Counted from the first letter of the whole stretch, positions 875 to 57,464 are shown. The stretch is DNA of 63,772 nucleotides, filler included, from Stramenopiles sp. TOSAG23-2 (GCA_900128395.1; 9 parts of 9 records of this genome joined end to end with filler, not necessarily neighbours in it); one strand, 5' to 3'. Notes: generated from the letters alone by a model not told the origin. Numbers and translations: made by a program.

Positions 875-1490
875 TTAAATAACAGCGTATGCTTTTAAAC
901 TGCTCAGCAAAACATACATGAACCATAAAAAGACCAATGCTGCTGCTGTTATATTTTGTAAGCGTTTTGGACCTCCAAGTTCACCACCTACACTTCTACG
1001 ACGGAAATTTAAGATTGCAAAGCAACAACATGCGCATGTACAGAATACACCAACACTAAAACCTAATGCACCAGCAGGAACTGCAAACCCACCAGCCTGC
1101 AATGCATCGTCAGATATAATACCTTTATATTTAGCTTTCCATTCATCTGTTGGTCCACCATTAGCACCATTAATACCGGCCCAATATAAAGTTGCAATGA
1201 CCCATGGTAAACCTAAACCAAGGAATACATTGACAGAGTTACTACCGGTAATATTCCCAATAGATGCATCAGCATATGGATCCTGTTTTGCCGCTGTCAT
1301 ACTTGCAAATGTATCAGGTAACGATGTTCCAAGTGCAACGAATGTAATTGCTGTAACAGAATCTTTCAAACCAAATAAACAACCAAAGATAGCTGCTGCA
1401 TCACCAATAATAACAGTCACACCACCAATCATAGATAACGAAACAACAAAGCATGCCCATCCTCCGTTTGAGTGATGATGTGATGATGGA
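875..1490 (-). CDS. Na+/Ca2+ exchanger (NCX family), C-terminal alpha-2 half only; 5' part absent
   Basis: NCX motifs GGWACFVVSLSMIG, GLKDSVTAITFVALGTSLPDTFAS, ASIGNITGSNSVNVFLGLGLPW and GGELGGP. Homology extends upstream of the ATG at 1432 to a possible acceptor (TTTACACAG) near 1491. Confidence 0.8.
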
Positions 1491-1707
1491 CTGTGTAAAT
1501 ATACTGTTGTACAGTAGGTTAAATACTGTATTGATCTCGCTATAATAATAGATGTGCAGAAGATGGAATGTGCGAATAGAGGCCGTTAATGTTCACATTG
1601 TTTTTTTGTACTAGGTAGCTAGCTATTATATATTGAAATTATCATACATGCATCGTTACAATCATCACAATCATCCTATTTATTGAATTATTACATATCT
1701 CACATAT

Positions 1708-1753
1708 CCTCTCGTCGGAAAAACGCTAAATTGCCCCTCGGGGCAATTTAAGG
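1708..1753. repeat. Transposon 3' end: 12-bp TIR, 7-bp spacer, 24-bp palindromic inner repeat
   Basis: CCTCTCGTCGGA-aaaacgc-TAAATTGCCCC-tc-GGGGCAATTTA-AGG. Confidence 0.92.
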
Positions 1754-1990
1754 AACAAGGAAATAACATTACAGTAGTGATGTGTTGCTGTTAAAAAGTA
1801 CACGAACACAGCAGCTGCTACCCCCTTTATTTTTGTTAGGCAGAGAGGTAGTTGTATTAAGTATAAGAAAAGTGTATACTGAAAGAGTCGGTCAACTCAA
1901 AGATCATTTGAAGAAATATATATTTACATTATCTTTTTACACAAGCACACTTTACTTACAAAATGCATTCTGAGTATTCCAGCAGAGTTA

Positions 1991-2530
1991 CTACAATCTA
2001 GCTCCATCTGTACCATTTGCACTTCCATTCCATTCATCCGTTCCAATATATTTTTGTTCAACACGATTCTTTTCCACATCTGGTACTTCTTTGCCATGAT
2101 GATACAAATAGAAACAGTCCAATGAGCAATAGCTGGATAAACAGTTGATTTCTTGGCACATGAATTGTGCATTTGGCAAGGATGTACGTGGCAGCCCAGT
2201 TGGTCCTGGCCTATAAGATTCCCCATTACACCATTTTCTGCCAATTTGATTACAAACCTGGCAAGCCTTGTTTGAACGTCCATTAAAAGCTAATGGCAAA
2301 TGACCTGGTTCGTAGTTTCTAGCTTTCAGCCCTCTATTAGCACTATTACGTGGAATACGCATGGATGGATATGAATGGCCATTCGGTTTTTTTTTGCTTG
2401 AGTAAGCTTTCTTCTTTGCAACTTCTTTATCTTGCTGGCCTTTCCTTGAATCAAATTCTTCCATTGTCTCATCTTTACGTTGCGCTTTTGGACGACCTCT
2501 TTGATTTTTTTTATAAAGTGGTAAATGTTG
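1991..2530 (-). CDS. In-frame continuation of the transposase beyond TGA 2531-2533: AT-hook-like RGRP and C-terminal cysteine-rich domain
   Basis: Same frame as 2531..5317. Reads QHLPLYKKNQRGRPKAQRKDETMEEF...HLP...CQVC...CQEINCLSSYCSLDCFYLYH, typical of piggyBac CRD zinc fingers. Confidence 0.8.
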   Translation of the reverse strand, partial: QHLPLYKKNQRGRPKAQRKDETMEEFDSRKGQQDKEVAKKKAYSSKKKPNGHSYPSMRIPRNSANRGLKARNYEPGHLPLAFNGRSNKACQVCNQIGRKWCNGESYRPGPTGLPRTSLPNAQFMCQEINCLSSYCSLDCFYLYHHGKEVPDVEKNRVEQKYIGTDEWNGSANGTDGARL

Positions 2531-5317
2531 TCATAAACCAAGTTTTGATCGTACAATTGATAATTGGAAGTCATGGTGAGAAACAAATACTGGCTTTTTC
2601 ATTCTTGTTGTCCATTTGAAAGTTGGTTTTAAAAATGCTTCAATTTCTTCATCTGTTCGTACATCAACTTCTCTACCCCGTCTAACTTTAAACTTATCAG
2701 CTTCACGTTGGGCAGCCATATCCTTATCCCATTCATCATTGTACTTTTTCATTTCAGCTGCATACATAATTTCATATGCAATATAGGCTTGCGTTGCCCT
2801 TGTATTAATGACCCAGCAAAACATGGCCCATGTCCACTTCATATTGTGCCACATATGTTCACCATCAATTCTATAATACCACCTCTTGCGATCCTGGTTA
2901 TCAACCCCTCCCATGTACTTATTGTAAGCCTCAATCAATGTCAAACATAAAAATGTAATAACCTGTAAAACATACAGCCATACTCTGGTAACAGCATTAT
3001 TATCATTGTTATTATTGTCTGGAGGTGGTTGTACTTGTGCCGCTTCTTGCACTTGTGCCGCTTGTTGCCCATTTTCAGCTATATCCAACCTCTCAGCTTG
3101 ACCTACAGCAGCTCTTTGAGTACGAACATGCACATTCCGCTTCTTTTCTGTCATCATGCATTTTCCATGCGTATCCAACTCAACTTCTTTTGTGGTATAA
3201 AACTTCACCGGATCTTTACCATTATCATAGACATTCACAGCAATCATCCCAAATTTATCATTAGGAATACCTTTGCCAGGAATGTCAAAAATTAATGAAC
3301 GTCCATCATGGATTTGCTCAGCTTTTAAACGTTCTTTATCACTTGGTCGTGTCACTGTTGGAAGTAGTGCCTCTTTTGGAAATCCACGATTTTTATGAAC
3401 AACCTGTGTCATTAATACAGCTGCTTCCACAAAAGCATAATATGGTAATTTAATACCACTGTACAAATTGTCACAATAACATGTTCTCCATTTTCCTTTA
3501 ATGCAATCTTTGTTTAGCATATGCATGCAACGGTTTACAAGTGGGCTACAATCATGACGGACTTTTACTCCCTCTGGGCTATCTGTTCGGAATTTGAACG
3601 TGATCAAGGCTCCAGTTTTAGAGCAACAAATAGCATCTAATAATACGCCATCCCCTTCACGTTTGTACGTAATTCGGGTTTTACCAGCCATGAACGAACC
3701 CTGAAATCCCATTACTATTTCATCAAGCGAAAATCTTTCACCGCAAATGAATACATCTTCACATGCTAACATAAGCGCATCCAACATTGCCCGTGTTAGG
3801 TGTAGAACATCACCTTTAAATTCACCAACTAACGGTACCTCTACATCCGGGTCATTCATTCGAAGGTATGTTTTTAACTTCTCGACTTCCTTGTAAGATC
3901 CGTGTCCACCTAATGCTGCAATAACTTCAGGATTTCCAACCAATGAGTCCCGGGACCAATGGTAACGTAGCTGTGCACGCGGACATACACCATTATATAG
4001 CAAAACTCCTTGTGTCTTTTGCATTGTTTCTATTGTTGGTGCATCCTTAGGGTCATTCCCGGCAGCTATAAAATGATTTCGTGTCCATAGTAGCATCATT
4101 TCATCCCCATTTTTCCCATCAATTTTCCCGATAAAATGATCATAAATATCAACAGGCATCATATCATATTTCCATCCTAAGCTTGGATTAATTTTTGTAT
4201 CTTCATGACCCAATGTACATTCTGGCGGTGAATATTTTTGCTTATTAATTTCATCTAATGGTAACCACTCAGACGCAGCAAATAGTGGATCAGTAGGGTG
4301 TTGTGCAATATTACAACCAACACGTGGTGGACGAAGTGCAGTACCTGGTGGATCATCTGGATGTAGACGAGGTGCTACACTACCTAAAGGTATTGTTTCA
4401 GCAAATTTATACTCAGTTGGGCGTTGTGTTAAAGGGCATTTTGTATAAGCAGCTCTTGATTTATGACCATAGTAACCACAATGTTTACATTGAGGAATCA
4501 CATTTGGTGCATGTGGAACTTGTGCTGCACCTTGTAATAGAGGTTGTAACAAAGGTTGTTGGTCTTCTTGTTCTTCCTCCTCATCATCTGTACCATTGCC
4601 TAAATTAACTGTAACTGGGTCAACCTCATCACCGGGAACATGAAGTGAAGGCACAATATTAGACGCATCATTCACATTACCTTCTATAGGAATTAAAACC
4701 TCTCTTGTTCCTACAACATCGCGATTGGGGTTTTCTGTTGCTGTTGATGCAGTTTCTGTACTATTAGTAGTAGTTGTAGTAGTAGTAGTAGTACTTGTTG
4801 TTGTTGTTACTTCACCATCAACACTTCCATTGCTACTATCACTGGTATTATTATTATTACTTCCTGGATTATTATTATCAGTTGAAGATGATGCGTTAAT
4901 ATTAATATCAACAATGGTATGGTTGATTAATGGCACAGACTCATCATCGTCATTGTCATTTTCATCACTGTTATAATCTCCATCACCGTCTGCAATCAAA
5001 CTATTATTATCTTCCACATCACCTTGTTCTTCTCCCCCGTCTTTGTTGCTATCGATACCAATGATAATACTATTGTTATTGTTATTATTATTATTATTAT
5101 TATTTGTAGCTTGATCATTAGTACGTTGTTTTTTTTTGCTTTTTCTTCGTCGTTTTGAGACAGCCCTTTTTCTTCTTTTCTTATTAGAAAGATTTCTTTC
5201 CCTCTCTTCCTTTTCCTCATCTCTACGTGCTTGTTCTTCGACTACCTTTGCAGTTTTTTTCGTATTTCTACCTGATTTTCGTTGGCCATTTTTGCTACGA
5301 GTTACTCTCATTTTCAA
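2531..5317 (-). CDS. piggyBac-type DDD transposase, N-terminal and catalytic part (928 aa to the first stop)
   Basis: Catalytic motifs FSLDEIVMGFQG, CYCDNLYSG and YNKYMGGVDNQDR. CCHC knuckle CKHCGYYGHKSRAAYTKC. Basic NLS-like and acidic low-complexity N-terminus. Confidence 0.9.
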   Translation of the reverse strand: MKMRVTRSKNGQRKSGRNTKKTAKVVEEQARRDEEKEERERNLSNKKRRKRAVSKRRRKSKKKQRTNDQATNNNNNNNNNNNSIIIGIDSNKDGGEEQGDVEDNNSLIADGDGDYNSDENDNDDDESVPLINHTIVDININASSSTDNNNPGSNNNNTSDSSNGSVDGEVTTTTSTTTTTTTTTNSTETASTATENPNRDVVGTREVLIPIEGNVNDASNIVPSLHVPGDEVDPVTVNLGNGTDDEEEEQEDQQPLLQPLLQGAAQVPHAPNVIPQCKHCGYYGHKSRAAYTKCPLTQRPTEYKFAETIPLGSVAPRLHPDDPPGTALRPPRVGCNIAQHPTDPLFAASEWLPLDEINKQKYSPPECTLGHEDTKINPSLGWKYDMMPVDIYDHFIGKIDGKNGDEMMLLWTRNHFIAAGNDPKDAPTIETMQKTQGVLLYNGVCPRAQLRYHWSRDSLVGNPEVIAALGGHGSYKEVEKLKTYLRMNDPDVEVPLVGEFKGDVLHLTRAMLDALMLACEDVFICGERFSLDEIVMGFQGSFMAGKTRITYKREGDGVLLDAICCSKTGALITFKFRTDSPEGVKVRHDCSPLVNRCMHMLNKDCIKGKWRTCYCDNLYSGIKLPYYAFVEAAVLMTQVVHKNRGFPKEALLPTVTRPSDKERLKAEQIHDGRSLIFDIPGKGIPNDKFGMIAVNVYDNGKDPVKFYTTKEVELDTHGKCMMTEKKRNVHVRTQRAAVGQAERLDIAENGQQAAQVQEAAQVQPPPDNNNNDNNAVTRVWLYVLQVITFLCLTLIEAYNKYMGGVDNQDRKRWYYRIDGEHMWHNMKWTWAMFCWVINTRATQAYIAYEIMYAAEMKKYNDEWDKDMAAQREADKFKVRRGREVDVRTDEEIEAFLKPTFKWTTRMKKPVFVSHHDFQLSIVRSKLGL

Positions 5318-5605
5318 TTAAATAAAAAATATATCATTAACTATTAAAAAAGTACGCAATAAAAGAAATACCATACAAATACAATTACAGATGAACGTTA
5401 GAATCTATATTTTATACACATGTGTGGGTAAATGAGAAAATGTACAAACGTGCACCGTCCGTTTCAAATTTGAATCACTTCTAGATGGAATCATGATATG
5501 ATATATATATGTATACAAAGCTATGGATGTGTAGATTGCTTCTAGCCATTCATTTTTATGGTTGCCATCGAAATCTTCGAGATACAATTTTTTAAAAATT
5601 AGATC

Positions 5606-5644
5606 CCTTAAATTGCCCCCTGGGGCAATTTATCCGACGAGAGG
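5606..5644. repeat. Transposon 5' end: palindromic inner repeat directly abutting the 12-bp TIR
   Basis: CCT-TAAATTGCCCC-ct-GGGGCAATTTA-TCCGACGAGAGG; its reverse complement matches the other end with no spacer. Confidence 0.92.
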
Positions 5645-5736
5645 ATATATATATATACATTTCAAACGATCGATCGATGTAGAGAGAAAAGAGAGAAAGA
5701 CCAACCAACCAAAAAAAAAGACAAAGAAATGCAAAC

Positions 5737-6847
5737 ATGAGTTTAGAACAAAAAGCAGAAATAGCGAGTGGGAAAAACATCGATGATCCTGGTGAACAAG
5801 TAGTTGCAAAAGATTTTGTACCATTATTTAAATTAACGGATGCGAAGTACAATTAAATATTATGATTTATCACATAACGTCATTACCGACCCTGGCATAA
5901 TTACATTAGCGAAAGAGACGGTGCCAAATATGAAAGAATATTGCATTGAATATTTAAATTTAGTAGGTAATTGGTTTACATTGAAAATTGGTGTAAGTCT
6001 TGGTGATGCACTGACTGCCAATGCTTTTGCAAATCATATTAAATTTGAAGATACAAGTGGTTCAACTGTTGGAACATATGGTGGTTGTATATCAGCTGAT
6101 GAGATACGGCATGCTGAAGAATTATTGACCATAAATAATCGAGCAATGTGTGACGTATGTGGTAGTATCATAGCACGTATGATCCTTGCAAATGATGATA
6201 TACATAAAATTAATTTAGCAAGAAATCGTTTTACTAATCGCACTGCAGCATTGATTTGTGAAACCATATTGGATCATGGGTTTATAACTGAGTTAGATTT
6301 AAGTTGTAATAATGTTGATTTACAAGAACCAGACTTGAATAAACGTATTTTTGACTCATGTGGAAAAGCAAAAAAATTAACAAAATTACGATTAGATAGA
6401 AATGGCATTAATAATGATGGAATGTGGTCGATTGTCAGTTTCATTGGCTCCGATCCACCATTAGAAATGTTATCAATCCAAGGGAACAATTTCTATGAGA
6501 AAAAATGCTTTGAAATCTTGGTAAACAATTTAAAACTGAATCGTACGTTGATATGGCTCGATTTAAGATACAATCCTGCCTTTTTAAATCAATTAGTCAT
6601 GACTGGAGATGGATATCCAATGCTGGCATTTCAACTAAATCGCAGCAATAAAGATCTAGTATGCCCCCCATTTCACGATGTAGATATGGAAAATGAAATA
6701 CTAGCGCAGGATCAAGAGTATATGCATAAATTTAGGGAAAGAATGTTGAAAAAAATCCGTATAATGATGGATTCAAGTGGTGAGATGGATCAAGCAAGTA
6801 ACTTATGGTTAGGTAGAGCACAAAATTATGTTGAGCCAGGTGATTGA
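5737..6847 (+). CDS. Leucine-rich repeat protein (RNI/NLRC3-like LRRs), with an apparent frameshift near 5840-5855
   Basis: LxxLxLxxN repeats (YYDLSHNVI, INLARNRF, ELDLSCNNV, LRLDRNGI, LDLRYN) in 5840..6847. The ATG at 5737 opens a 39-codon frame offset by 1 nt. Confidence 0.75.
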
Positions 6848-38802: not shown

Positions 38803-38862
38803 ATGGATGATGCAGATGCAGCATATGAGTCCTTGAAATGGGCGAAAGAAATGTATCATAAA

Positions 38863-38903
<41 letters not shown>

Positions 38904-41900
38904 TAATAATAACGATAGCGATATAAGTGACTATGGGGAAGATGTTGATAATGTCGATATAATGAATGATGTTACTATAGATTTTAACAATAATGAAGAT
39001 ATGAATAGTGTTGATAATGGAACCATTGGTATGAATGATTTAGATAATTTAGTATCTCCCAACTCTATGGTTGCTTCTGGTGGATTTAGAGGTGACCAAA
39101 CCGTAAAACTTGCCGAGTTAGAACAGCGCTTAAAAATCGCAAACGAACGCGCAGAAAGATGGAGGCAACAAGCTGAAAAACTAGATTCAAGTGGCGTTTT
39201 AGATCCTATACGTCGCGCCTCTGACGTCGAGCGCTACCAAGCCCAAGTAAAAACATTGAGGAAGGAATTATGGGCGGCAAGGAAAGAAACGGAGGATTGG
39301 AAATTAAAAGAAGCCTCTGGAAGAGCAGAAATTGTTGCCTTGCGCTCTGCAAATAGTCGTTTAAAATCGAGATTAAAAGAAGCAGAAAATTTACAAGATA
39401 TTGTATCTAAAAGCTCCGATAGTAGTAAAAATGAGAAAGTAGAAGAGTTGACAGTTGCATTGGAAATTGCAAAACGTGAATTGACACGAGCTGACGATGA
39501 AATTGCGGACTTACGCATGGTATCCATTAAAGGTGATTCAGAAACAACAAGTTTAAAAGAAAAAATCAAAGCATTAGAAAATGAAAATATTAAATTAGAA
39601 AAACGGTTACAAGATGAATTAAATGATATTCGTCGTAATAATAACAATATAAACAATAGAAGAATGAGACACCAACCACAAAGTAATAATTATATCCCAG
39701 ATTCAGATGATGATGATTTAGACTCGGATGAAGATAGAAGTGTTGGTGCAACTACATTTAGTCGACAAATGAATAATAATAACAATAATAACGGGATGTA
39801 TGGCAGTCCAATGTCAAATAATAGGAATAGAGCACAACCAACTTCCCCTGTCGATAATGTTATCAAATCAATTCCAGAGCAAGTTGCAATTCGATTGCGT
39901 CGAGCGGCACAATTGAATCAAGAATTGCAACAGCGTATGTTTGCAGCAGAGGAAGAAGTCGAACGTTTGAAACAATTAGAGGATGGTCGATTTGAAAATT
40001 TAGAAGAAGAAAATAGATTGTTACAACGGAAAATCAATGATTTGAAAGAGGAAGTTGTTACACATCAAAATTCCTTGATTGCTGCTGATGCAGATTATCA
40101 AGAATTAAAAGCTATGCATGCTACAGAAGTAGCAGAATTGAAAAAGGAGCACACGGCAGTAGCAACGACATTGGCAATATTATCAAAAGATACTAAAGAA
40201 GTAGAAAGGTTAAAGGCAAAAAAAGTAGCTGCTGAAAAGGCGGAGAAAGATGCAAAAGCAAAATTGGCAAGTGAGCGCAAACGGCAAGTGTCGGCACAAG
40301 ATGCATTTGAACAGGAACAAGCTGCGGAGACGAAAGTTAGGGAAGAAGCGGCTTTAGTGGAACAAGCTAAACGGATACAAGACCAACACAGAAAACAAAT
40401 GGAAGAAGCGTTGAAAAAAAAAGAGGAAGAATTAAAGAAATTTTTGGAATTAGAAATGGCAGAGTTAAATAAAGAACGTGCTGCGCAGCAAAAAGCAAAG
40501 GAAGAAGCAGAACGATTACTGATGGAATCGCAAAAAGAATTAAGAAATATGGAAGGGGATGCTGAAAAAATGAAACGGGAGCATGATGAAGCTATGGAAG
40601 AACGATTAGCAGAAGAGCAACGCATGGCCGAAGCAATAGTAGAACAAGAACGTGCGAAAGCGGAGGAAGCAGCAAAAGTACATATTGAAGAACAAAAATT
40701 ATTGTGGGAGGAAAAATTGAAACTAACTGAAGATCGTTTAGCTAGGCAACATGAAATGGAGGTAAATACAATTAATAGCTTAGCAAATGAAAATGAAGAA
40801 CAAGTCAAAGCGATGAAATTAGAAATGGAAAGAATGCAAGTTGAACATAAAGAAAAAACAATAGCAGAAGAGCGAGAACGAGAGAGAAAACAAAGGGAAT
40901 GGGAGGAAATGGAATTTAAAAAGAAACGTGAACAAGAAAATGAATTATTCGAAATGGAAAAAGCAATGCGTAAAGCTAAGTTAGAACATGATGAAATGCT
41001 AGAAAAGGCTAAAAAAAAGAGCAGCAAAAAGGTAAAGGAAGCATTGAAAAAACAAGAGGCAGAAATGAAACGGCAAAAACAATTGCACGATGAAAAACAA
41101 CGTAAATTACAATTAGATTTGGAAGGGGATAAGAAAAAGCACGAGGCGGAATTGAAAAAACACGCCGAGGATGTAAAACGAAAGGAAGAATCATATCAAA
41201 GAGAATTAGAACAGCAAAAGAAACGTACGGAACAAATAAAACGAGAAAATGAATTAAAATTGCAAAAAGAGAAAGAATTAGCAGAAAAGCATGCTAGGCA
41301 ACAAAAGGAGGAAATAGCCAAAGCAAAAAAACTCCATGATGATAAATTAAAAGAAGCTAAATCGACATATGAAAATGAAATGAAAGATGCGAAGAAAATG
41401 CATGATCAGCACATGGAAAATACGCACAAACAGCTTGCGGCATCTTCTAGTGTTATTCATATATTAAACAAACGACAAGAAAAGAAAAAACGCAATGTTT
41501 TAAAATTTGCACATTCATGGAAAGGTAAGGCAGGGAAAAAAGGTGCGGAAAGAAAGGCAGAAGATGACATCCAAGAACGTGCTCGACAACATAGGGAAGA
41601 ATTGAAAAAAATGGGGCAAGATTTAGAGAAAAAAGTTGCAATGCAAAAAAAAAGTATAGAAGAGTTTGAAAAAAGAAGTGAAGAGGAATTTAAACGTAAA
41701 TTGCGTCAGCATGAAGAGGAATTAAAACGCAAGGAAGAGTTTCAAGAGCGTGAATTGAAAAAACGACAAAAAGAACACGAGGAACTAATGCGAGAAGCAA
41801 AATCACAACATAGCAAAGAGCTAGAACGACAATTACAAGACAATGAAAGGAAGGTCAAACAGGCGCAACGATTACTAGACGAGAAACACAAGGCACACGA

Positions 41901-44900
41901 GGCGGAGATTGAGCGAATACGGAAAGAGCAACAAAAATTTGAAAAGGAAAAAAATATTGAGTTTGAACGCCAATTAAAGAGGCAAGAGGAAGAAATGAAA
42001 CGCCAAGAACGTGAGGCGGAGCGTGAATTAGAAAGGAAAAGAAAAGAACACGATGCGTTGATGGCACATGCGTTGACAAATGCGAGCGCCCAAATGGATA
42101 GACAATTAGCTGAAAATGAGAGAAAATTGGCCGAGGCAGAACGTATTGCTAATGAAAAAGCTAGGAAACATATGGAAGACGTAGAACGCATGAAACATGA
42201 ACATGAAGAATACTTAAGAAAGAAGCACGAAGGTACAGAAGCACGCTTAGAAGCGAGGGATAGGGAACTGAAGGAGAAGGAACAAGAGAAGAAAAGAGAA
42301 TTAGAGAAACGCCAACAAGAGCATGATGAACTAATGAAAGAGGCAAGCAAAACACATAGTGCTGCATTAAATAAAGCCTTGGAAGAAAATGAACGGAAAC
42401 TAAGGGAAGCACAAAAGGCTACTGATGAAAAACATGCAAAACACCAAGAAGAATTGAAGCGGCTTAAAAAAGAGCAGGAGAAATATTTACAGGAAAAGCA
42501 TAAGAAAAATGAAGCATTGATTGAAAAATTAAAACATGATCAAGTTTTACAAGTAGAAAAAGCAAAAAAGCAACATGCCATCACGATGAAATTCTTATCA
42601 AAAATGGAACAGAAAGGAAAAGAACGTACAAATATGGCAAAACGCTTAGGTGGCAAGTGGCGAAATATAACTGGCAAACGAAAAGAAGTCAATAAAGTCA
42701 AAGAAGAAGCGATGGCTAAGGTAAGGGCAGCTGAAGAGCATCAACAAAAAACGGCGGCTGCATTGAAGGCAAAGGAGGAGAAACTACGCCAAGAACTAGA
42801 ACGTGAGAAACAAAAAATGAATGCTGTGATGGAAGAAGAGGAAAGAAAACGTCGTGAGTTGGAAGAGAATCTATCAGCAGATAAAGCCAAATTGGAAAAG
42901 CTGCAGGAGGAGCATAAATCGAAGGCATCGACAAAATCATTCAATAATGTCATGTCTAAATGGGCTAATAGAAGCAAAGAGCGCAAAAAGGCATTGCAAT
43001 TGCAGAAGGAAAGGGAAGAGGCAGATCGCAAGTTAAAGAAAGAGGAGGCAGATAGAATAAAGGTGGAGAAGCAATTGAAAGCACAGGAAATGGCCATGAA
43101 AAATCAAGAAAGTACGTTAAAGGAGAAAGAGGAGGAGCATAGAAGATTCAAGGAGGAACAAGAAGCTAAATTAGCAGAAGCAAAGGACAAACAAAAGCAA
43201 TTAGAAGAGGAAACAAAGGAAAAAGCGCGGACGTTGGAAAGGCAGAAACGTTATGCAGAGGAAGAAAAAAAGAAACAAGAAGACAAATTCAAGAAAGAAC
43301 AAGAAGAATTGCAACAAAAATTAAAAAAGCAACAAAACGAAATGAGCAAAAAATTACAAGAACAACAAGCACAGCTGGAAAAGGAGAAGAAGAAAATGGA
43401 AGAAAACCTAAAGAAGCAAAAAGAAAAGATGAAACGTTTGGAGTTGGAAAGCAAGCGTAGCTCAAATAACTTAAAAAAGAGGATGGAGTTAGAAACTGAA
43501 CGGGAAAAAGAACTTGCTATGCAACAGGCATATGATAAATCAGAATTAGAAGCTGCTAAAAAGTTAAAAGTGGAGCATGAAGCCGCTGCAAAAAAATTAA
43601 AAGAAGACCATGATAAAGCAGCCATGTTGTTAAAGAAAGAACGAGAAGAAAAATTAAAATCTGTTGAAGAAAAAGAAGAATTATTGAAGAAGGAACGTGC
43701 GGAACACAAGCGTATGCAACAGGAAATGAAAGCTCAGTCGGAGAATGTATTGCAGGAAGAGAAAAAATTGGCTGCATTGGAAAGGAAGAAATCAAATCTT
43801 AGGGAATCAAAGTTAAAAGAAGAGTTGAAAGTTGTTAAAGAGAAAGCATTGAAAGCAAAGATGGGAAATTTGTTGGGAAACAAAATGGCTGGTCTCAAGA
43901 TGAAGAAAAATTCCTTGATACGCAAATTTGCAAGTAAATGGAAGAAAAAAAGTGATTTAAATAAAGCATTAAGTAAGGTAGAAAAAACATTACTTGCCGA
44001 GCGAGAAGCAGCGGAAGCAAAGGCATTGGCACATAAGAAATTACAATTAAAGTTAACGAAATTGGAAAAGGAGGTAAGCGAAAGCAAAAAGTTAATAGCT
44101 AAGAAGGAAACGGAATATAAAGAAAAATTAGAAACGTTGGAAAAATCACATCAAGAAAAAATAACCATCATGGAAAAACAGGCAGCGGAATTGAAAGTTT
44201 TGGCTGAAGAAGCTGAAGGTAAAAAAGGATCATTAGAAAGTGAAACAAAAGTCATGGTCAAACGTTTGGTAGACAAGGTGGAAGGAAAAAATGATTTATT
44301 GCATCGTGCTAGAATACGAGTAGCTAAACTAGAAGCTGAACGGAATGTATTAAAGAAAAAATTAGAGCAATATCGTTCCAGGGAAGCAATGATTGCCGAA
44401 GAAGCTGCAACGGAGGCAGAAAGACAGGTGATAGCATTGACAAAATTACGCAAACAAGTTGAAGAAGATAGTGAGCATATGGATAATTTAAATGCTTTGC
44501 AACGTAGCTTTGATCCAGATATACTTGTAATGACGCATAAAAAGAAATTAATGCAAGAACAGCAAATGCAATATTTAAATAGTGTACAGCAGCAGCAACA
44601 ACAACAACAACGTCAATCACCGTCACCAACGTTAGATATGCCACAAAGGCCAATCATTGATACATATTCATCGCCGGCTGGTAAAATGTTTGATACTTTC
44701 TTAGACGCAACAAATGAGGTTAGAAATAATATCAATCGTGCTGATACATTTGATATATTTTCAGGTGTACCAAGAGGTATGCCAAATAGTCCTTCGCAAC
44801 AAATTCAACATCAACAAAAAATGCAACAGATTCAAAATTTGAAACAACAATTGGAACAATTGCAACAACAAGGAATATCATCATCATCTTCTCGTCGTAA

Positions 44901-45369
44901 TTCACCAACTGCTAGTTTTGAAACAAAACTCGATAATTTCAATACAAATAATAATAATAATAATAATAATAATAGTAATAATGGTTCGATGGAAAATAAT
45001 ATTAATAATGTATACCCAACACAACGTCAACAAGAAGGTCATGAAAAAATGGCCTATTTAAATCGTTTACAAATGGAAGTGCAAAATGCTAGAAAAGAAG
45101 TGGATGCTGCTAAAGAGGCTATACGGATACAAAATGCACGTTATTCAAATCTAAGACCCGAAAATAATTTCAAAAAATTAAGTATGGGTGATCGACTTTT
45201 GCAACATAGAATGGAAGTTCCAATGGAAGGAATATTTAATAATACTGATGTGAACAGGTTACCATCCCGTCATGGTGGACAAACGAAAATTGCTAGTAGC
45301 GTATCTAAGAATAGAGTGCATATTACCAGGCAAGGCAGTGTTTACATAGATACAGATGACAACATTTAA
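38803..45369 (+). CDS. Giant coiled-coil protein (2,188 aa)
   Basis: Long E/K/Q/R-rich helical ORF with N-rich termini and three 91-aa internal repeats. Confidence 0.85.
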
Positions 45370-48123: not shown

Positions 48124-51100
48124 TTAGAAAAACAAATCAGCTCGCGGTGATAACACAAGTTTACGATCGGCAGCTTCATCTTTCGATACAGCACCGCCAG
48201 TACTTGTACTAGCACCTACTTTTGGCTCTTGGTCTTCACCCTTGGATCCAGTTTCAGCTGCAGCGACTTTTACTGGACCTTGAGCACCAGAAATACCACC
48301 GTCATTAGGGCTTTTGCCTAATCCAGTTGCACCAGAAGCATGGATTGGTTTAGGTACACTTCCACCAGTTGCTCCTAGTTCTTCTGGTACTTGTTGTGTC
48401 ACATTCTTTTTCTCAGCATCTATTATTTTCTTTTTGCGTTCTTGAACCATTTTACGAATGGTATCTACATTGGTTTTGTTATCTATTGCCTTGATTACTA
48501 CTGGTTGAACAGGCACAGCTCTTGCTTTTGTTTTCTCATCCCCTTGTCTGATCAATTCTTTTAAACCAGTTGTTTGAACTTCATCACTGCCTGTAACAGG
48601 TGCGGAACCATCACCTAATGTCACGGAACCATCTACATTTACTATTGGTGTTTTGCCATTTAATTCAATCGTTGATAATTTACCATCTTTCAAATCCGAA
48701 CAGCAATAAATACCAGTCTTTTTCTGGAAATTACAGTAACCACCTTCATTCGCTGTGCCACAACCTTCTCCTTTCATGGATGCAATAAAAACGTTGAAAC
48801 CAGATGCAGCGCCATATTTAGCCTTTCCAGCTTTTACTGGAACAGTTGATGTAAAACCACAAGCACATACATCGAAACCACCACTCATACTATTTCTAAC
48901 TTCCTCCTCAGAACATACATGTGCCTTCATGTTCACACCTTTGATTGGTGCACGACATTTAGCAGCAGCTTGAGCAAAGGTAAATTGACCTTTAGCATAC
49001 CAAATTGCTTTTTGAAGTGGCGAATCAACTTTTTCGTTATTGATACCTAATTTTTCCAATATAGCAAGTGGTGTTGAGCCGATTGGCAATAAATCTTTAG
49101 GATCTACACTGCTTTCAATTGCTTTTTCAATACCAACTTTCTCTGCTTCAAAGTCCTTTTCTTTCATGAATCTACGTGGTATTGGGCCAGCTCCATTTTT
49201 AAACGATGCAGATTTTGCAGATAAGAAAGCATCCAAAGCTAAGCGTGCATGTCTCGCTTTCTCTTCTGTTTTTTCAACTGCTATCGTTGTTTTATTAGCA
49301 TCATCTTGCAACGAGGCTACCAAGTCACAACGCTTAATTACCAACATTGCAGTTGCGTTTGCTCTTTCATTAGCACCGGAAACTACACTTGCATCTTCTG
49401 CTTGTGGACTTGCGCCATATTGTTTTACTTTTTCGTCATATTCTGCTTTTGCGCTATCCGCTTCTCTGCGTGCATATTTACATTCACTGAGGGCTTTTAC
49501 CAATTTTTCATTGATATGATACAATGACGATTTTGCTTTTGGTACTGCTAACAATGTTTTCACTAATACATTCTTCAATTCTTTAGTTTCTGGAGCATCA
49601 CGTGGATTGATTGCTACCACTTTAGGTAGGTCAACAACATTTTCTTTCTTCTCTTCCAATGGGAGTCCTTTCACTACAGAATCCATTCCAGCTGCTTTTA
49701 ATACAGCTTTAGTCTCCGTTACTTTGTCTCTTGCGGCATCTGCATTAGCACTTGCTACGTTAATTTTCTTTTGAAGATTATCAACTGCGGTTTTAGCTGC
49801 TTTTACACGATTGTCAGCATCAATAACAATGGCATCACCAAGACTTGGATCAGCACGGCTTTTTTGCATTGTTTGGGCATATACTAATTGCGCTGCTGCA
49901 AGTTCTTTGTTTAAGCGAGGTTTTTCGACAATTAAATTATTCAAATCATTTTCGATACGTTTGCGCATCTTAATAGCATACACTATTTGCTTTGGGGCTG
50001 GTGGTGGAGTATTTACTGCACCAGTTGCACCAGTAGCACCAGTAGCACCTGTGGATGCAACACCTACATTTAATTGACCTTGGTTGAATAATTTTTCAGC
50101 TTCTGCTTCTACTGCGCCAGTTGCACCAGTTCCGCCAGTTCCGCCAGTTCCACCAGTTCCGCCAGTAGATGCGCTACCAGTACGTCCCGTGACAGTTGGA
50201 ACCTTCTTCTTTTTTGGTTTCTTTGGAGCTTTGACCTTTTTCGAAGTTTTGTTAACGGCTTCAGTACTACCAGTTGCAGCAGTTGCTGATCTTTCCGTTT
50301 CTTCTACAAGTTTTGCAGCTTTCTTTTCTGCTTCTTTCTCTGCTGCTAATTCCTCATCAGATTTATCATTCTCTGCACGAGGTCCATCAATAGCTTCTTG
50401 TGCTAATTTTGCTGCTTTCGCTGCCTTGATCAATCGTTGTTTTTTCAACTCAACAGAAATACGGTGCTCACCTTCTGCGCTACCACCCGTTGCACTTTTA
50501 TTCAAACCGTCCACGGTTTCTTCAGCAACACTTTCATTCTTCGATGCTTCTAACATTTTCTTTTTTGCTTTTGCTTTTGCCATGACCTGTCTTGCTTCAA
50601 TTGCTGTTGCACTGTTACCTGTCATACCACTAGCAGCTGCGCCCGTGATAGCCTCAACATCCAATTTTGGTGCGGCATTTCCAGTTGCCTCCACGCCACC
50701 ATCAGCGCCAGTAGCACCACTTGCTGCTTGTCGCCTTGCTTCTGCTGCTGTTTCTGCATCTTTCTCTTCATCACGTTGTACATCCAATGCAGTTTCTTCT
50801 TGTGCCATAACCATTTCAAGGGCACGTGCACCACGTTCTTGATGTACGTAATCTGCTAATGTTTTTTCAGCAGCAACTCGGATTGCTTTTTGCCCAGCTT
50901 CAGCCATTGCGTATTTAGATTGAGCTGCTTTGATAGCTAATCCGATATCTTGTATGTCTTCTGTTACATTCGCAATTTCACTATGCAATGCGCTGACAGA
51001 TGCACGTCTATTAGCAACGTTACTTGTCAAATTCTTATCATCCGTATCGTTTGCTGTTTTCTTCAATGCCAGAGCTGCTCGTAATGCACCATCTGCAACT

Positions 51101-54100
51101 TGCAAATCACCTTTTAATTTTTCTAATTGGTGTTGAAGTTCGAATTTATTTACAACACGAGTTAGATATTGATAATGCGCATTTGCTTGTTTCAATACTG
51201 CAGCGGCTACCTTTTTGCTTTTCTTCGTCTCTTGCCATGCAATAATTGCATGCATGAATTTTCCTTTTGTCATTGGAACAGAAGCGTTTGCCGCTTTCAC
51301 GCGAAGTTTCGCTTTTTCAACTTCTTCTTTGCAATGTTCCTCCAACGATTTAAATTCACTTGGATTGTTTGCACCTCCACAACCATTTTCTAGATCCAAT
51401 TCACGCAAGTAAAGATTCTTCCCAGCAGCATCAACTTCTGCAAGTGCTTTAACCAAATCTTTTTTCACATTTCCAAAGTTTGTACCAGCTTGTTGTTCTC
51501 TTGCAGTACCATTTCTATCCCCGACTTGAGCTTGCTCGATAAATCTACCTGAAGCTGCTTTACGTTTCAAAGCCTTTTGATATGGTGTATCCGTACTCAA
51601 AATGCCAGCATCTGCTTCAATATCACCATGTGATTTTGCTTTACCAGCTTTCAATGGTGGTACGACAACTGCATGTTTTGGCTTTTTGTTCAACTTCTCC
51701 TCTGGTTCTACTGGCAATGGTGGCAAACCTTTTTGTGCCCGTTCATAATTAATTTGTGCAACACGTGCAACTTCATTTTGTGTTTTTTTAGCTAACAATT
51801 CGTAATCAACTTTTTTACTTTCGCTTACAACACCATTTTCACAATCATTTTTGCAACGTTTTTTCAAAGCTTTATTTTGTGCTGTAACAGCAGCATGTAC
51901 TTGCGGCGTAACAACATCAACTTGTGCAGCACTACCTTGTACTGAAGCATCATCTTTTCTCAATTGGATCAATTTTTTACGAATTGGTCTAATTTGAGAC
52001 GAAATTTTAGCCACAGTCACGTTGTCACCTTCTGCAATTGCTTTATGCATCGCAATTTCTAATTTACGCAAACTTGCTTCATCTTTTGAAATTAACTTTT
52101 GCAATCGAACAGTTTCTTGTTTGATCAAATGGTCATTCGTTCTTTGATTTTCATCTTTTGCAACGTCATCGATTTTATTTCCATCGGTTGCGTTCTTGGC
52201 ACCACCAGTCATCGATGGATCTTCGTTCGCTGCACCAGTCGCACCAGTCGCTCCAGTTGCAGATACAACTTGAGCAAGTTTGAAGTCGATCTTGACTTGC
52301 GTTACGTGTTTCAAACCACTACCTTTAAACATTGCTAGTAAATCATCTGGTTTTTTTAACTGCTCTTTGAACTTAGTATCAATGGAAGCTGCTACAGCTA
52401 CACTAGGTGCTGCAATTTCAAATTCAATGTCTATGCCTACAATTGATGCATTTCCTAATTGTAAAAATCCATCCATTGAAATGTAGGAATCAGATGACAA
52501 CTCAATGAACTCGTCTACTGCATCGTCAATACCTGATTTTGGACCTGTAGCTTCTTCACCATCTGCATCTTTGCCACCATTATTAGCATCCTCTTGCAAT
52601 GGATCTTTGTATGATAATATATTTACTTGAGTAACATCTACATCAGCAATTTCTGCGATTACATTACGAACTTGCAATTTTGCTTCCTCATCGAAAGATT
52701 CTGCGGAATATCCACCAAGTGTAAGAGATACTTTGGAACGTAAGCGTTTTGGGAAACGTTTCAATACGGAAATATGTTCTGCAGATGGTTTGTCATCTTC
52801 GTTCACGGTGTCCAATACAGATTTTGTACTTTTCTCCAACTCTTCTTGTTTCTTGATACCATCAACGTCTTTTGATTTGAGTGTATTCAAAGCTTCTTTT
52901 ACACGAGACAACTTCTCTTTCTCGCTTTGCTCTACTTGTTGAATATCAGCAACTTCATCTTTTTGTTGTTCTGCATCTGAAACGGCGCCAGGTGTGTTCT
53001 TATCTTGTGCCTCACGCATACGTTGTTTCAATGCTGTTGTGGCATCCTTTTCTTGTTGTTCCTCTTTTAGTAAACGTTTTGTTTCTGATTCGACAGCTGT
53101 TTTAATCGTAGTTTCAACTTTGCCAAGGGTTCTCTTTGCATTGATGGTATCCGCTTCTTTCTTTGCCATCGTATCTGTAGCTACATCAAGGCGTTTCTTA
53201 AGTTGTTTTTGTTCTTCCTTGTTACCCTCTTTTTGTGCTTTTTGGATTTGCAATTTAAGTAGCTTGGATTCGTCCTTTAATTTCGCAGCATTTTCCTTAT
53301 CAACGGTTTCCAATTTCTCTGCTTTTTCACCTTCTTTTTCAATCTGTTTCACTGTATCAACCATATCAGCAGATTCAACATCAATAGGCGCAACATCTTC
53401 ACCACCGGTGGAACCAGTGCTACCTGTCGCTCCAGTCATCATACTAGCAGTCAATGGAGATATCTCGGTTGGCAATTGTCCAGGTTTATCTGTACAACTA
53501 CCATCCTCCGTTTTTGGCTCGTAACATCTACCCAATGATTCACACCAAAGCATACCTTCATTTTTCCAATCGCAACCTTTTTTCAAGGATGAACTGATCA
53601 TAGCTTCTGTAACTGGATGGTTATTGCGTCTTTTTGGAATACCAAGCATGGCATCATCTAATACTTCAACTTTTTTATTCTTCTTTTGCAATGCCAATTC
53701 ATTAACAGCTGCTTTGTCTTTTAAGTTCATGGTGCGCTTTTCAATTGCTAATGCAGCTGCAAAGTCTGCACCCATGCCAGAGGCACCGGATACACCAGTG
53801 GAGGCAGCGCCAAATGCACCAGTTGCGCCAGTTGCGCCAGTAGAACCAGATGCACCAGAAATACCAGTCAATCCCGTCATTCCCGTCATTGCAGTTCCAC
53901 CAGTTCCGCCAGTCTCTTCATCATCATCCTCTTTATCGGGCATTTCCCCGAAACCAGAATCAGAATGATCAATAGCAGGGCCAACTCTTCTACCAGCTGG
54001 TTCAATGGTACCAGGTTCTTCCTTCATCAAATTTGGAACAGCTTTGCTACCTAAGATATCTCCAGTAGTCCTTAATACATCTGCATTAACACGCATGCCG

Positions 54101-57100
54101 CCAGGTGTACCCGCTTTCTTTTCATGTAAAGCAGCACCACTGGATATATTACCTTCGTAACGCATGTCAAGAATAGCTGCTTCAGCAATTTTCTGGCTTC
54201 TTTCAGCATCTTCGATCATTTTATTCGAGTTTAAAATATTTTGTTCGCTTGTTTTGATACGTTTATTTGCAGCAGTTAAATTCGCTTCTGCATTTTTCAA
54301 TAAAGTAGTTGCATTTTTGCCATCAATACTAGCTTGTTTTGCCATTGCTCTTGCACGTACAACCCTTTGAAGTGCATCTCTTGCAGTTGCATTTGCATCT
54401 TGTTTACGTGCGTTTAAACTTTCCATCTCAGCTTGTAATTTGGATAATTCAGTTACACTAAAGTTCAAACGTTTCTCAGTCGTAGCAAGTATTTTCTCTG
54501 AAGCATTGACTTTTTTCTCTGCTTGTGCAACTTGTCCTTTCACACCTGCAATTGTTGCTTGATCTTGATTGCCTGCAGTAGCACTTTTCAACACATTTTC
54601 TTCCGTAACAGCTTCTGCTTCTTCTGCTTTCAAATTGCTTTTGTCTTTTTTCAATTGTGATGTTAAGGATGAAACAATACTGTCCAGACTTTCGACTTGG
54701 ATTTTATGTCTTTGAATTTTACCAGTGACTTCTTTCAACTCTTCCAATGCCTCTTTGCGATTTTTAAATGCTGCTTTTGCTAAAACTTCTGAATTACGTG
54801 CTAGGCGAGTTGCATTTGCAATGCGGCCTTGTGCTACTTTCATCAACGTCAAAGCAGTGTTTTTTGATTTGGTAGAATGTCCTCGTGTAATGTATGCATC
54901 TCTACGGATTTGTTTTGCTTTTTCCGTTTGGTTTTTGCTCAATTCAGAATAATTTTGTGCAATGTTGGCACTTTTCTCTGCTTTGATTCTAGCATGCATT
55001 GCTATCGCAGCTTCATTGGCATCGTTGGTCGCATCATTGAAGCGTTGGCATGCAACACGTGCATTGGATACCAATAATGCTTTTTTCGCTTCCATTTCTG
55101 GTGCCATATCAAGCTCAATGAAAGATGTTTCATTTGCCTCTGTTTCATTTGCCTTTTCAAATTTCTTCAATTTGAACACAGCATGGTCACAAGCACGTTT
55201 CCATGCATCTGCTGATTTGCGCAATTTTAAAATACTTTCAAAACTAGATGGGTCATCTTCTGGTGCATCGTCTTGCATTGGGTAGGTATATGTAATACCA
55301 ACACCAAACCACATTTCACCACCATCAACACTACCTTGCACGGTAACTGATTGTGGCATAGAGACGCCATTTTCAACTTGTGCAGGTGGAGTGCATTTTA
55401 AATATTGCCCAATTTTTTTCGTAACAGGATCTTTTCCACGTACCATGACACCAGATACAACGCGATCCATAAATTTACAACGATAAAAATCCGATTGTGC
55501 CGCTACTTGTAAATTTTCTGATTTGAACAATGCAGGTGCTAATGTTTTACCATCTACTTGGAAACTACCTTTGATTGGTCCAGGGATCAAAACAGGTTCG
55601 CCTTTTGCGCCTTGCTCTTCTGCTTTTTTCTCTGCTTCCTTTGCAGTCAATTCTTCAATTGCTTTTGCATGTTGTTCCTTAATCGAATCCATCGTGGATT
55701 CATGTTTGTTTACAATATTTGTATGGTGTACCTTACGATCTTTACGAAGTGCTTTCAATTGTTCATGATGTTGCGAAGCAACACGTTCCATTGCATCTTG
55801 ATGTTGTGATAAGATTAATTTTACTTTATCCTCGTTCACATTTTTCTCACTTTTACCACCATTAATAGCATTGACACTTTCTTCCGTTTCCATCGATGCC
55901 TTTTGGTTTGCATGTCTTTTCTTTGCCTCTGCTAAACTTTTAACATGTCGTACATGAATTTTGTTTAAACTTGCTTCGTGTGCTAAATGAATTTTTGCCA
56001 ATGCTTCTTTATGAGTTGCATGTATTAAATCAACGGCACCATTTCTTGCTGCTTGTATGACTTCATCTAACGTTCCCGCTTTTGGTCCCATGTATGCTCT
56101 TGCAACTGCATTTTTAATCTTTGCCAATGCATTTTCATGTTGTGCTTTCACGTGTTCCATACTTGCTTTGTGTGTTGCAACTACACGTCTCACAGCAGCA
56201 GTATGTGCTGGTGATTGTGGTTTAGATGTTGCAATGATTTTAGCTAAACCGGCTATACGTGATCTAATCTCTTCTAATTCTGGTTTTACTTTATCACCCA
56301 TGCGTAAAATATCCATCGTTGCGGCGGATACTGGTTTCAATCCATTCAAGCAACGTGTACATTTACCTGTCTTGCTATCTGTTTCTGCGCACTTTAAACT
56401 ACAACCATTATTTTTTAACAAAGCTTTGCGTTCTACCGCATTAATGGTAGCTAAACGTTGTGGTAACTTTGCCATAGCAAATGTCTTTGCTAAAACTTTT
56501 TCTACATTGCCTTTCTTCTCTTTCAAGACAGCTAACATTCTCACAACAGTTTCGCGGTTGTTTGTCAAACGAGTGATCAAACGAGAGAATAATGATGCTT
56601 GTAACTCACATTCTTTCGTTGTATCCATTAATAATTTTGTTTCTGCTTCATATACTTTACGTAAAGCACTTAATGCATCTTCTGATAGTGGTAACTTTAA
56701 ATTGTTATTTTGTACAATCTTATGATTTACTTTTGCCAATTCTTTCTTATCTTTTTCAATTTCACTTTGCAAACTTTCTTGTAAATCATTTGCTTTACTA
56801 TTAGTCTTCTTCCTATCATCACTACTCCTACGCACTGCTACTACGTTTTTATGTTTATTCCTATTTTTACTATTACTATTAGCATTTAATAAGTTATTAT
56901 TATCATCAATCTTATTATTGCTTTTGAAACCAACCAACTCCAACAAGGATGTAGCTAAGCTTTTCGTTGCTTTGCTTTCCAATTGTCTGGTAGCATTTAA
57001 AAGTCTACCTTTGGTTGCTTTCAATTTGGTACTAGCACGTTCCGTTTGTAAACGACATGACGTTTCCATAGCTGAACGTTCCTTCAATAAAGTATTAAGT

Positions 57101-57291: not shown

Positions 57292-57464
57292 TTTTTTTAA
57301 ATCAAATCTCTCGTCGTTTTTTTTAACTACTATAGATATATTCCTAAAATCAAACAACAAAAATTAATTATAAAATTAATATGTTCTTCCCCTATAAGAT
57401 TTATATATATATATATTCACGTGTGTCGCACACCAAACTATCAATGTAAATATAAATATATTCC

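Follow-up and report, generated by a model that had tools for sequence, protein, structure and literature searches.

A piggyBac-type transposon family of a marine protist with TAT/ATA flanks in place of TTAA

We describe a cut-and-paste DNA transposon of the piggyBac type that belongs to a marine protist and has copies with TAT on one side and ATA on the other, and not TTAA. The element lies in a 63,772-nucleotide stretch of DNA from Stramenopiles sp. TOSAG23-2 (GCA_900128395.1; nine records joined end to end with filler), hereafter called the window, and measures 3,937 bp from its first CC to its last GG, or 3,943 bp when the invariant TAT and ATA are included. Seven ends of the family, from at least four insertion sites, all read TAT-CC (which equals GG-ATA on the other strand; the hyphen marks the boundary with CC or GG), whereas the fourth base outward varies. 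With modest confidence, we favor the interpretation that insertion duplicates a dinucleotide inside an invariant T-A-T / A-T-A context, TA being somewhat more likely than AT as the duplicated unit. As far as the sequences of the copies can tell, the family would then duplicate neither TTAA nor ATAT.

Results

Seven ends of one family share TAT/ATA

Copies other than that of the window came from two sources, namely the contigs of runs X1, X2, X4 and X5, and a scan of metagenome contigs for the terminal inverted repeat (TIR) together with its neighboring palindrome. The contig comparison covers the matches listed for these runs, with runs X6 to X21, which make up a small share, left out. The insertion sites are those of the window copy, of L001, of L002 and of the X1/X2 contigs. 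The scan yielded two loci, L001 and L002. L001 is a complete miniature inverted-repeat transposable element (MITE) of 551 bp, with 132 bp (94%) and 55 bp (94.5%) at its two ends in common with the window element. It is flanked by ...GCTTTGTGTAT-CC (in short form ...TTGTGTAT-CC) and by GG-ATAGCAGTTG... (ATAGCAG...), so that its two sides read GTAT and ATAG and form no direct repeat. L002 consists of one end, GG-ATATGTGCAT... (in short form GG-ATATGTGC), and reads ATAT. From X1/X2, one contig runs through ...AGAGGCCGG (ending ...GGCCGG) and then into the element from 1705 (TATCC...), and an X2 contig follows the right end through 5647 (...GGATA) and continues as GTTGTTTAC... (GTTGTT...), so that these two ends read GTAT and ATAG. 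With the two ends of the window copy placed first, the seven ends, each read toward the element, have A, A, G, C, A, G and C as the fourth base outward. TAT makes up 3.1% of window positions, and the chance that all five further ends would carry it is ~3e-8.

In X1, X2 and X4, contigs begin or fork at 1705 and 5647 (the latter in X2 and X4) and not at 1704 or 5648, and outside TAT/ATA the sequences of different copies diverge at once. As no common sequence exists there, the element does not extend further out. TTAA was found at none of the seven ends, and the TTAA target-site duplication expected of the superfamily is therefore lacking; for this reason the element is not a canonical piggyBac-like element.

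The window copy itself has ATAT on both sides (1704-1707 and 5645-5648), and a first-pass annotation of the window had taken this for the target duplication. The two tetranucleotides are present as described, the right one entering an (AT)n tract, but the duplication holds for this copy only, as the outermost bases of the other five ends are G, C, A, G and C. We consider the ATAT on both sides to be an effect of landing in the (AT)n tract, in which any dinucleotide reading yields ATAT, so that the window copy is uninformative on this point. The flanks of the other copies, with TAT/ATA invariable and the fourth base varying, are essentially what the annotation had itself named as evidence against its ATAT duplication. 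Its more general suggestion of a different target specificity fares better, since a changed target is supported by the lack of TTAA at all seven ends, only not in the form of an ATAT duplication.

The two complete pairs of flanks, those of the window copy and of L001, have only TA or AT as shared direct repeats abutting the element, and a 4-bp direct repeat is present in one of these two complete copies, that of the window. Because the next base beyond TAT/ATA is free, only a dinucleotide duplication fits all copies. TA would be the duplicated unit if the element takes its terminal T and A along when it moves, which would give a 13-bp TIR, TCCTCTCGTCGGA. AT would be duplicated if the element is CC...GG and its target is TATA (T-AT-A).

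The termini have the structure of a piggyBac-type element, with short C...G TIRs and subterminal repeats at asymmetric distances from them (7 bp and 0 bp; Table 1). The perfect 12-bp CC...GG TIRs were already recognized in the first-pass annotation and are exact. Their sequence has two exact occurrences among three matches at up to two mismatches in the window (shuffle mean 0.71); the third, with two mismatches, is at 44888 and unrelated to the element. When ATAT is counted in, the inverted repeat becomes 20 nt at 95%. The subterminal 24-bp palindrome has two matches in the window versus 0.00 expected, and scans with TIR and palindrome both indicate that the window contains one copy only. By analogy, palindromes with unequal spacing would be the obvious counterpart of the internal repeats of piggyBac, and we infer that they may serve as the binding site of the cysteine-rich domain of the transposase.

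A divergent piggyBac transposase with a remodeled omega loop

The element encodes one long minus-strand frame, from ATG to TAG, which is broken by a single in-frame TGA. The N-terminus of the protein is basic and contains a low-complexity region of poly-N and poly-T. With Pfam reporting at E <= 0.01, the 928-residue open reading frame (ORF) has PF13843 (DDE_Tnp_1_7, the piggyBac transposase family) as its sole match, at E 7.9e-13 and 48.9 bits against a cut-off of 22.4. A single-sequence phmmer search of PDB gave no match, and a profile was required: the profile of 30 relatives finds piggyBat (9c0f) at E 5.3e-54 and piggyBac (6x67) at E 2.6e-40, with alignments that extend into the C-terminal cysteine-rich domain. 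Three aspartates, D532, D616 and D806, are invariant across the 30 aligned relatives and stand opposite D268, D346 and D447 of 6x67 (these numbers being counted off the printed alignment), which bears out the transposase with three DDD motifs reported at first. Thus, sequence comparison supports the membership of the element in the piggyBac superfamily, as a divergent lineage, in agreement with the first-pass annotation.

Relatives of the transposase are rare. A word search of 5.8 billion proteins gave four at E <= 1e-3, the best of them 47% identical, and among 1.84 billion representative proteins there were 302 at E <= 1e-3 and six at E <= 1e-30. The closest are metagenomic proteins, and the named, more distant ones belong to a diatom and a prasinophyte. 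The N-terminal part also contains a CCHC knuckle without a Pfam match. To our knowledge, such a knuckle is not part of canonical piggyBac transposases.

How the target is read can be compared with the structural account of piggyBac (PMC7351741). There, a nick at the terminal G comes first, after which a 4-nt TTAA hairpin is made and opened again, and the end is then joined to a TTAA in which the protein reads four unpaired bases. N440 contacts A-2 of TTAA, V414, L416 and Y439 form the pocket for T-3, and R275, Y283 and K290 of the omega loop hold the TTAA hairpin (PMC7351741). The flank of our element, N-T-A-T as compared with the T-T-A-A of piggyBac, keeps T-3 and A-2 in the same register relative to the terminal C. 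Also, Y798 and N799, which stand opposite Y439 and N440, are invariant in the 30 relatives, and this YN aligns strongly with piggyBat. R275, Y283 and K290, in contrast, stand opposite Q539 (invariant), R548 and G555, inside the clade motif I-x-Y-K-x-E-G-D-G, whereas piggyBat keeps R, Y and K. In a rough regular-expression search of 173 relatives, the DE...G motif was recovered in 97, of which 54 have EGDG, 62 have Q at the R275 position and three have R. The remodeled omega loop therefore marks a large protist/algal subgroup and not this element alone.

Judging by this pattern of residues, the change would lie in the omega loop, the contacts to the central T and A being kept. It fits a lineage that would still read the central TA but no longer the outer bases. 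In terms of mechanism, the DDD transposase would cut at the CC...GG termini, and its cysteine-rich domain, by analogy with piggyBac, would bind the 24-bp subterminal palindromes. It is tempting to go further and to propose that this clade is a free-living piggyBac lineage that recognizes only the central TA of an ancestral TTAA, with N-T-A-T flanks, keeps the 4-nt hairpin and has an omega loop without contacts to the outer bases. This idea is speculative and, in our judgment, rather doubtful.

Alternatives to a dinucleotide duplication

Several observations weigh against a dinucleotide duplication. Without an empty site, a TA duplication, an AT duplication within TATA and the lack of any duplication are inseparable by sequence, and no contig joining 1707 to ~5645 is listed in X1, X2, X4 or X5, which is not evidence of its absence. 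The sample comprises two complete pairs and seven ends, three of which, among the matches listed, are single 30-letter loose-end consensus strings of Logan contigs. The independence of the ends is limited, as X2 and X3 are closely related and X1 is a possible source of the window; the left flank from X1/X2 and the right flank from X2 may come from one copy or from two. In X2, no listed contig piece spans the right junction of the window. X1 and X2 contigs, moreover, set a different sequence (ending ...TTAATTAAATAT, a string absent from the window) before the right flank at 5645; it may belong to a second haplotype, to a paralogous copy of the flank or to a rearrangement between strains. Because of this pattern at the right junction, the pairing of the two flanks of the window copy rests on X1 contigs. 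With regard to the enzyme, the positions of the active sites in the piggyBac dimer are described as mandating a 4-bp offset (PMC7351741), which argues against a 2-bp stagger in a piggyBac relative. Finally, the residue correspondences given above are profile alignments, and the stretch of 6x67 around Y439 and N440 scores only 9.6 bits.

One alternative is that TAT/ATA belongs to the element, inside a 15-bp TIR (TATCCTCTCGTCGGA), and that insertion proceeds without target duplication, like that of Spy elements. TAT and ATA are indeed inverted repeats and invariant at all seven ends, and no common direct repeat lies outside them (A versus T in the window copy, and a 1-bp G only in L001). Eukaryotic cut-and-paste elements without a target-site duplication have also been published (PMC4122938). 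However, according to a survey of piggyBac-like elements, the first C of TIRs in the piggyBac superfamily is highly conserved and their terminal G matters for function (PMC5381638), while a 15-bp TIR would place CC/GG inside TAT/ATA, and the T-A lies exactly in the register of TTAA. We therefore regard this alternative as unlikely.

Another alternative retains the geometry of piggyBac, with the 4-nt hairpin, the 4-bp offset and the 3'-OH at the terminal G, and assumes an ATAT-like target with a TA center and relaxed outer bases, the 5' four-nucleotide flaps of the donor being ligated in. The base beside the element would then always be T or A, with an outer base that need not be alike on both sides, which would resemble the TA-centered 4-nt overhangs of PiggyMac. 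Consistent with this, the terminal CC/GG, the T-A in TTAA register, Y798 and N799 are all conserved, and the 4-bp offset said to be mandated by the dimer (PMC7351741) would be respected. PiggyMac cuts so as to leave 5' overhangs of 4 bases that have TA at their center (PMC3077386). The window copy has a perfect ATAT/ATAT, and L001 and the X1/X2 ends both have G...G at the outer positions. On the other hand, flap retention or biased mismatch repair would be required at every insertion, and a plain 4-bp duplication of a relaxed target predicts that some bases beside CC/GG would be other than T/A, which none of the seven ends shows. On balance, this scenario appears improbable to us.

The strict 4-bp ATAT duplication of the first-pass annotation, with the flanks of other copies mutated, draws on the ATAT on both sides of the window copy and at the single end L002, as well as on the mention of ATAT among the rare flanks other than TTAA with which single piggyBac-like copies are reported (PMC5381638). 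Yet four of the seven ends differ from ATAT, all four at the outermost of the four positions and none at the inner three, for which the probability would be (1/4)^4 = 0.004 if the differences were random mutations. L001, with intact TIRs at both ends, nonetheless has GTAT and ATAG and would need two mutations, and the window copy, sitting in an (AT)6 tract, is uninformative. We consider this reading very unlikely. That the element is a canonical TTAA piggyBac with altered flanks, or has its true ends further out, can practically be set aside: TTAA is the rule in the 157 surveyed piggyBac-like elements (PMC5381638), but none of the seven ends has it, and the copies diverge immediately beyond TAT/ATA, so the ends are not further out. 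The dinucleotide duplication, by comparison, agrees with all copies in hand.

The window copy is not intact

The first-pass annotation had called the transposon complete, from which we must depart, since an in-frame TGA precedes the cysteine-rich domain. At codon 929, this stop removes residues 930-1107; the domain is encoded in frame and conserved among relatives, but lies downstream of the TGA. A contig of X4 carries a copy ~95% identical to the window element, in which 2533 A>G on the plus strand makes the codon CGA (Arg). X1 and X2 contigs do not differ from the window at this codon (records 5 and 10, with 0 other letters). Two relatives, P0001 (931 aa) and P0002 (875 aa), have P and S at position 929, respectively, and both read straight through. 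When the window and X4 copies were compared over the 25 listed substitutions within 1991-2846, 8 of 21 scorable changed codons were synonymous and 13 were not.

Two other explanations of the stop were ruled out. An intron across it is incompatible with P0001 and P0002, which are colinear through the TGA with similar residues on either side. A sense meaning of TGA is contradicted by its use as the terminator of 3 of the 17 ORFs checked and by its absence from ORFs of 2,716 and 3,078 codons.

Because of this CGA-to-TGA nonsense change, the window copy should be unable to make the cysteine-rich domain, barring read-through of the stop. It would thus, like the MITEs, depend on transposase supplied by an intact copy. 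If the palindromes are the binding site of the cysteine-rich domain, the truncated protein of the window copy could therefore not use them.

Other copies and derivatives

Besides L001, the contigs of X1 contain an internal-deletion form of the element, with a joint 1943>3650, and there are X1 contigs that depart from it at 1813, 1839 and 2419; of these points, 1813 and 1839 match the MITE type of L001. The family includes autonomous-type copies, internal-deletion copies and MITEs of ~550 bp. That it has been mobile is supported by its MITE and deletion derivatives, and by different insertion sites in different data sets.

The TIR 16-mer CCTCTCGTCGGAWAAA was found in at least 120 stretches of genome contigs and in 6 of viral contigs. 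These stretches were rejected as copies of the element and attributed to chance, given that 126 of 128 loci lacked an adjoining palindrome and only L001 and L002 had one. A pattern search of viral contigs based on the clade alignment gave 105 matches, none of which was confirmed. Three flank strings from other copies or contexts are absent from the window. L002 was considered as an orthologue of the left junction of the window copy and rejected, the two having only seven flank bases in common, CACATAT.

Four of the seven flanks are alternating pyrimidine-purine runs beside the element (CACATAT twice, TGTGTAT and TATATAT), at 1694-1707 and 5645-5656 of the window, 591-600 of L001 and 78-92 of L002, a sample too small to speak of a target preference. 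In an X2 contig, the element from 1753 inward follows a subterminal sequence of another kind, ...CCTTAAATGGGTCGATTTAA, and this hints at a sister family whose palindrome differs. In X5, contigs cover the flanks of the element but little or nothing of most of its interior; we do not count this as a finding.

Genomic setting

The window is eukaryotic nuclear DNA with ~33% G+C and long uninterrupted ORFs, its genes including those for a BEACH-domain protein, MCM7, glutathione synthase and a sulfatase-modifying factor. The host is an AT-rich, intron-poor marine protist. The small runs X1 (the possible source), X2 and X3 cover the window almost whole, and X5, a marine metagenome, has contigs identical to the flanks of the element (records 23 and 24). 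The element is intergenic, situated between a membrane-protein gene and a leucine-rich-repeat (LRR) gene of the LRR_6 type (Table 1).

In X4, a 330-nt contig joins 931-1167 to 6627-6719 with one other letter and skips 5,459 bp, in which lie the element with its intergenic flanks on both sides and ~790 bp from the start of the LRR gene; it is not an empty site of the transposon. The joint 1167/6627 could reflect a real deletion or rearrangement in a relative, or a chimeric contig. Elsewhere in the window, two very long ORFs without a Pfam match were seen at 38803-45369 (plus strand, 2,188 codons) and 48124-57360 (minus strand, 3,078 codons). The former is rich in E, K, R and Q, coiled-coil-like and with poly-N runs, and it coincides with strong GC and AT skew at 40-44 kb.

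Table 1. Features of the element and its neighborhood in window coordinates
Feature	Position	Strand	Remark
Membrane-protein gene	875-1432	-	Other neighbor of the element
Invariant TAT at left end	1705-1707	+	Precedes CC at 7/7 ends
Left TIR CCTCTCGTCGGA	1708-1719	+	Exact match, 12 bp
Left subterminal 24-bp palindrome TAAATTGCCCCnnGGGGCAATTTA	1727-1750	+	7 bp inside the TIR
Natural stop TAG	1991-1993	-	End of the full frame
C-terminal part of the frame behind the premature stop	1991-2530	-	Colinear with P0001 and P0002; aligns to the piggyBat C-terminus
Cysteine-rich domain, residues 1019-1073	2099-2263	-	Cys/His columns nearly invariant among relatives
Premature stop TGA, codon 929	2531-2533	-	CGA (Arg) in the X4 copy
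Transposase reading frame, 926 codons	2534-5311	-	ATG at 5309-5311; ends before the premature TGA
D806	2900-2902	-	Catalytic DDD
D616	3470-3472	-	Catalytic DDD
Omega-loop motif F-Q-G...I-x-Y-K-x-E-G-D-G	3647-3703	-	Replaces F-R-G...K-P-x-K-Y-G of piggyBac and piggyBat
D532	3722-3724	-	Catalytic DDD
CCHC knuckle CKHCGYYGHKSRAAYTKC, N-terminal	4436-4489	-	Close-clade consensus CxxCxxxGHKSxRAxxKCPL
Right subterminal 24-bp palindrome TAAATTGCCCCnnGGGGCAATTTA	5609-5632	+	Abuts the TIR, 0-bp spacer
Right TIR, exact reverse complement of CCTCTCGTCGGA	5633-5644	-	Perfect 12-bp inverted end
Invariant ATA at right end	5645-5647	+	Same seven-end comparison
(AT)6 tract of the host flank	5645-5656	+	The right-hand ATAT is its opening
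LRR_6 (RNI-like) leucine-rich-repeat gene	5840-6847	+	Starts 195 bp from the right end of the element

Discussion

The element resembles piggyBac (IFP2 of Trichoplusia ni; 6x67/6x68) and piggyBat (9c0f) in its homologous transposase, its DDD triad and an encoded C-terminal cysteine-rich domain, which in the window copy lies behind the premature stop, and it resembles piggyBac in having short C...G TIRs as well as a palindromic subterminal repeat that is not equally far from both ends. The dimensions differ: a 13-bp TIR and a 19-bp repeat with spacers of 3 and 31 bp are given for piggyBac in PMC5381638, compared with a 12-bp TIR, a 24-bp palindrome and spacers of 7 and 0 bp here. It departs from piggyBac in its flanks (N-T-A-T before CC, as against T-T-A-A before CCC), in the lack of a 4-bp direct duplication in one of two complete copies and in the replacement of the three omega-loop residues. 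Unlike both piggyBac and piggyBat, it has an additional CCHC knuckle in the N-terminal part and an N-terminus that is long and of low complexity, and its full protein has ~1,100 residues versus 594 and 578.

The nearest functional parallel is, in our view, PiggyMac, the piggyBac-family enzyme that excises internal eliminated sequences (IESs) in Paramecium and acts at conserved TA sites rather than TTAA. Its cleavage leaves 4-base overhangs with the conserved TA in their middle, and one TA remains after excision (PMC3077386). PiggyMac, however, is domesticated and excision-only and acts on IESs, whereas the present element, with TIRs, a gene of its own and MITE derivatives, is a true transposon. 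The homology seen with PiggyMac is at the level of the superfamily. If the TA model is right, the duplication of a TA dinucleotide would also be shared with Tc1/mariner elements (IS630-Tc1-mariner), but their transposase family is unrelated: at E <= 0.01, the sole Pfam match of the protein is PF13843, and not a DD34E/D transposase of that type.

TTAA is general in the survey of 157 piggyBac-like elements, in which five single-copy exceptions, with TTTT, ATAG, TTAT, ATAT or ATAA, are ascribed to mutation (PMC5381638). Our family is similar to these rare copies in having non-TTAA tetranucleotides beside its TIRs, ATAT and ATAG included, but those are single copies, whereas here the same TAT/ATA recurs at seven of seven ends of one family. 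In our literature search, no piggyBac lineage was met that is described as having a regular flank or duplication other than TTAA, most subscription journals and Repbase Reports lying outside its coverage. Matches on non-TTAA concerned canonical piggyBac or Pokey, and matches on TA target-site duplications concerned elements of the Tc1/mariner type. PiggyBac-A and PiggyBac-X are RepeatMasker/Dfam classes and named sub-lineages of the piggyBac superfamily. The first-pass annotation had connected such names with ATAT-targeting subgroups, but in the literature covered they occurred only as plasmid or vector names or as bare RepeatMasker labels. It is possible that one of them already covers the clade of this element and that it has been described before in Repbase or Dfam.

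A more general caution concerns annotation, as a single copy lying in a microsatellite is no reliable source for reading off a target-site duplication.

TTAA targeting, together with the seamless excision to which it is coupled, is taken as the hallmark of the piggyBac superfamily as a whole (PMC5381638 and PMC7351741), and the two are the reason why piggyBac is a favored vector for genome engineering. The consistent TAT/ATA flanks of the present family indicate that the target can change within this superfamily. If an intact member is active, the family would be a natural experiment on how the choice of target and the geometry of the hairpin are coupled, with a possible link to the TA-based excision of IESs in ciliates, and it would provide a candidate orthogonal integrase. 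Should a lineage that recognizes TA alone turn out to be real, it would be the transposon counterpart of the TA-centered cleavage of ciliate PiggyMac, and might be a starting point for an orthogonal integration tool of the piggyBac type with a far more frequent target.

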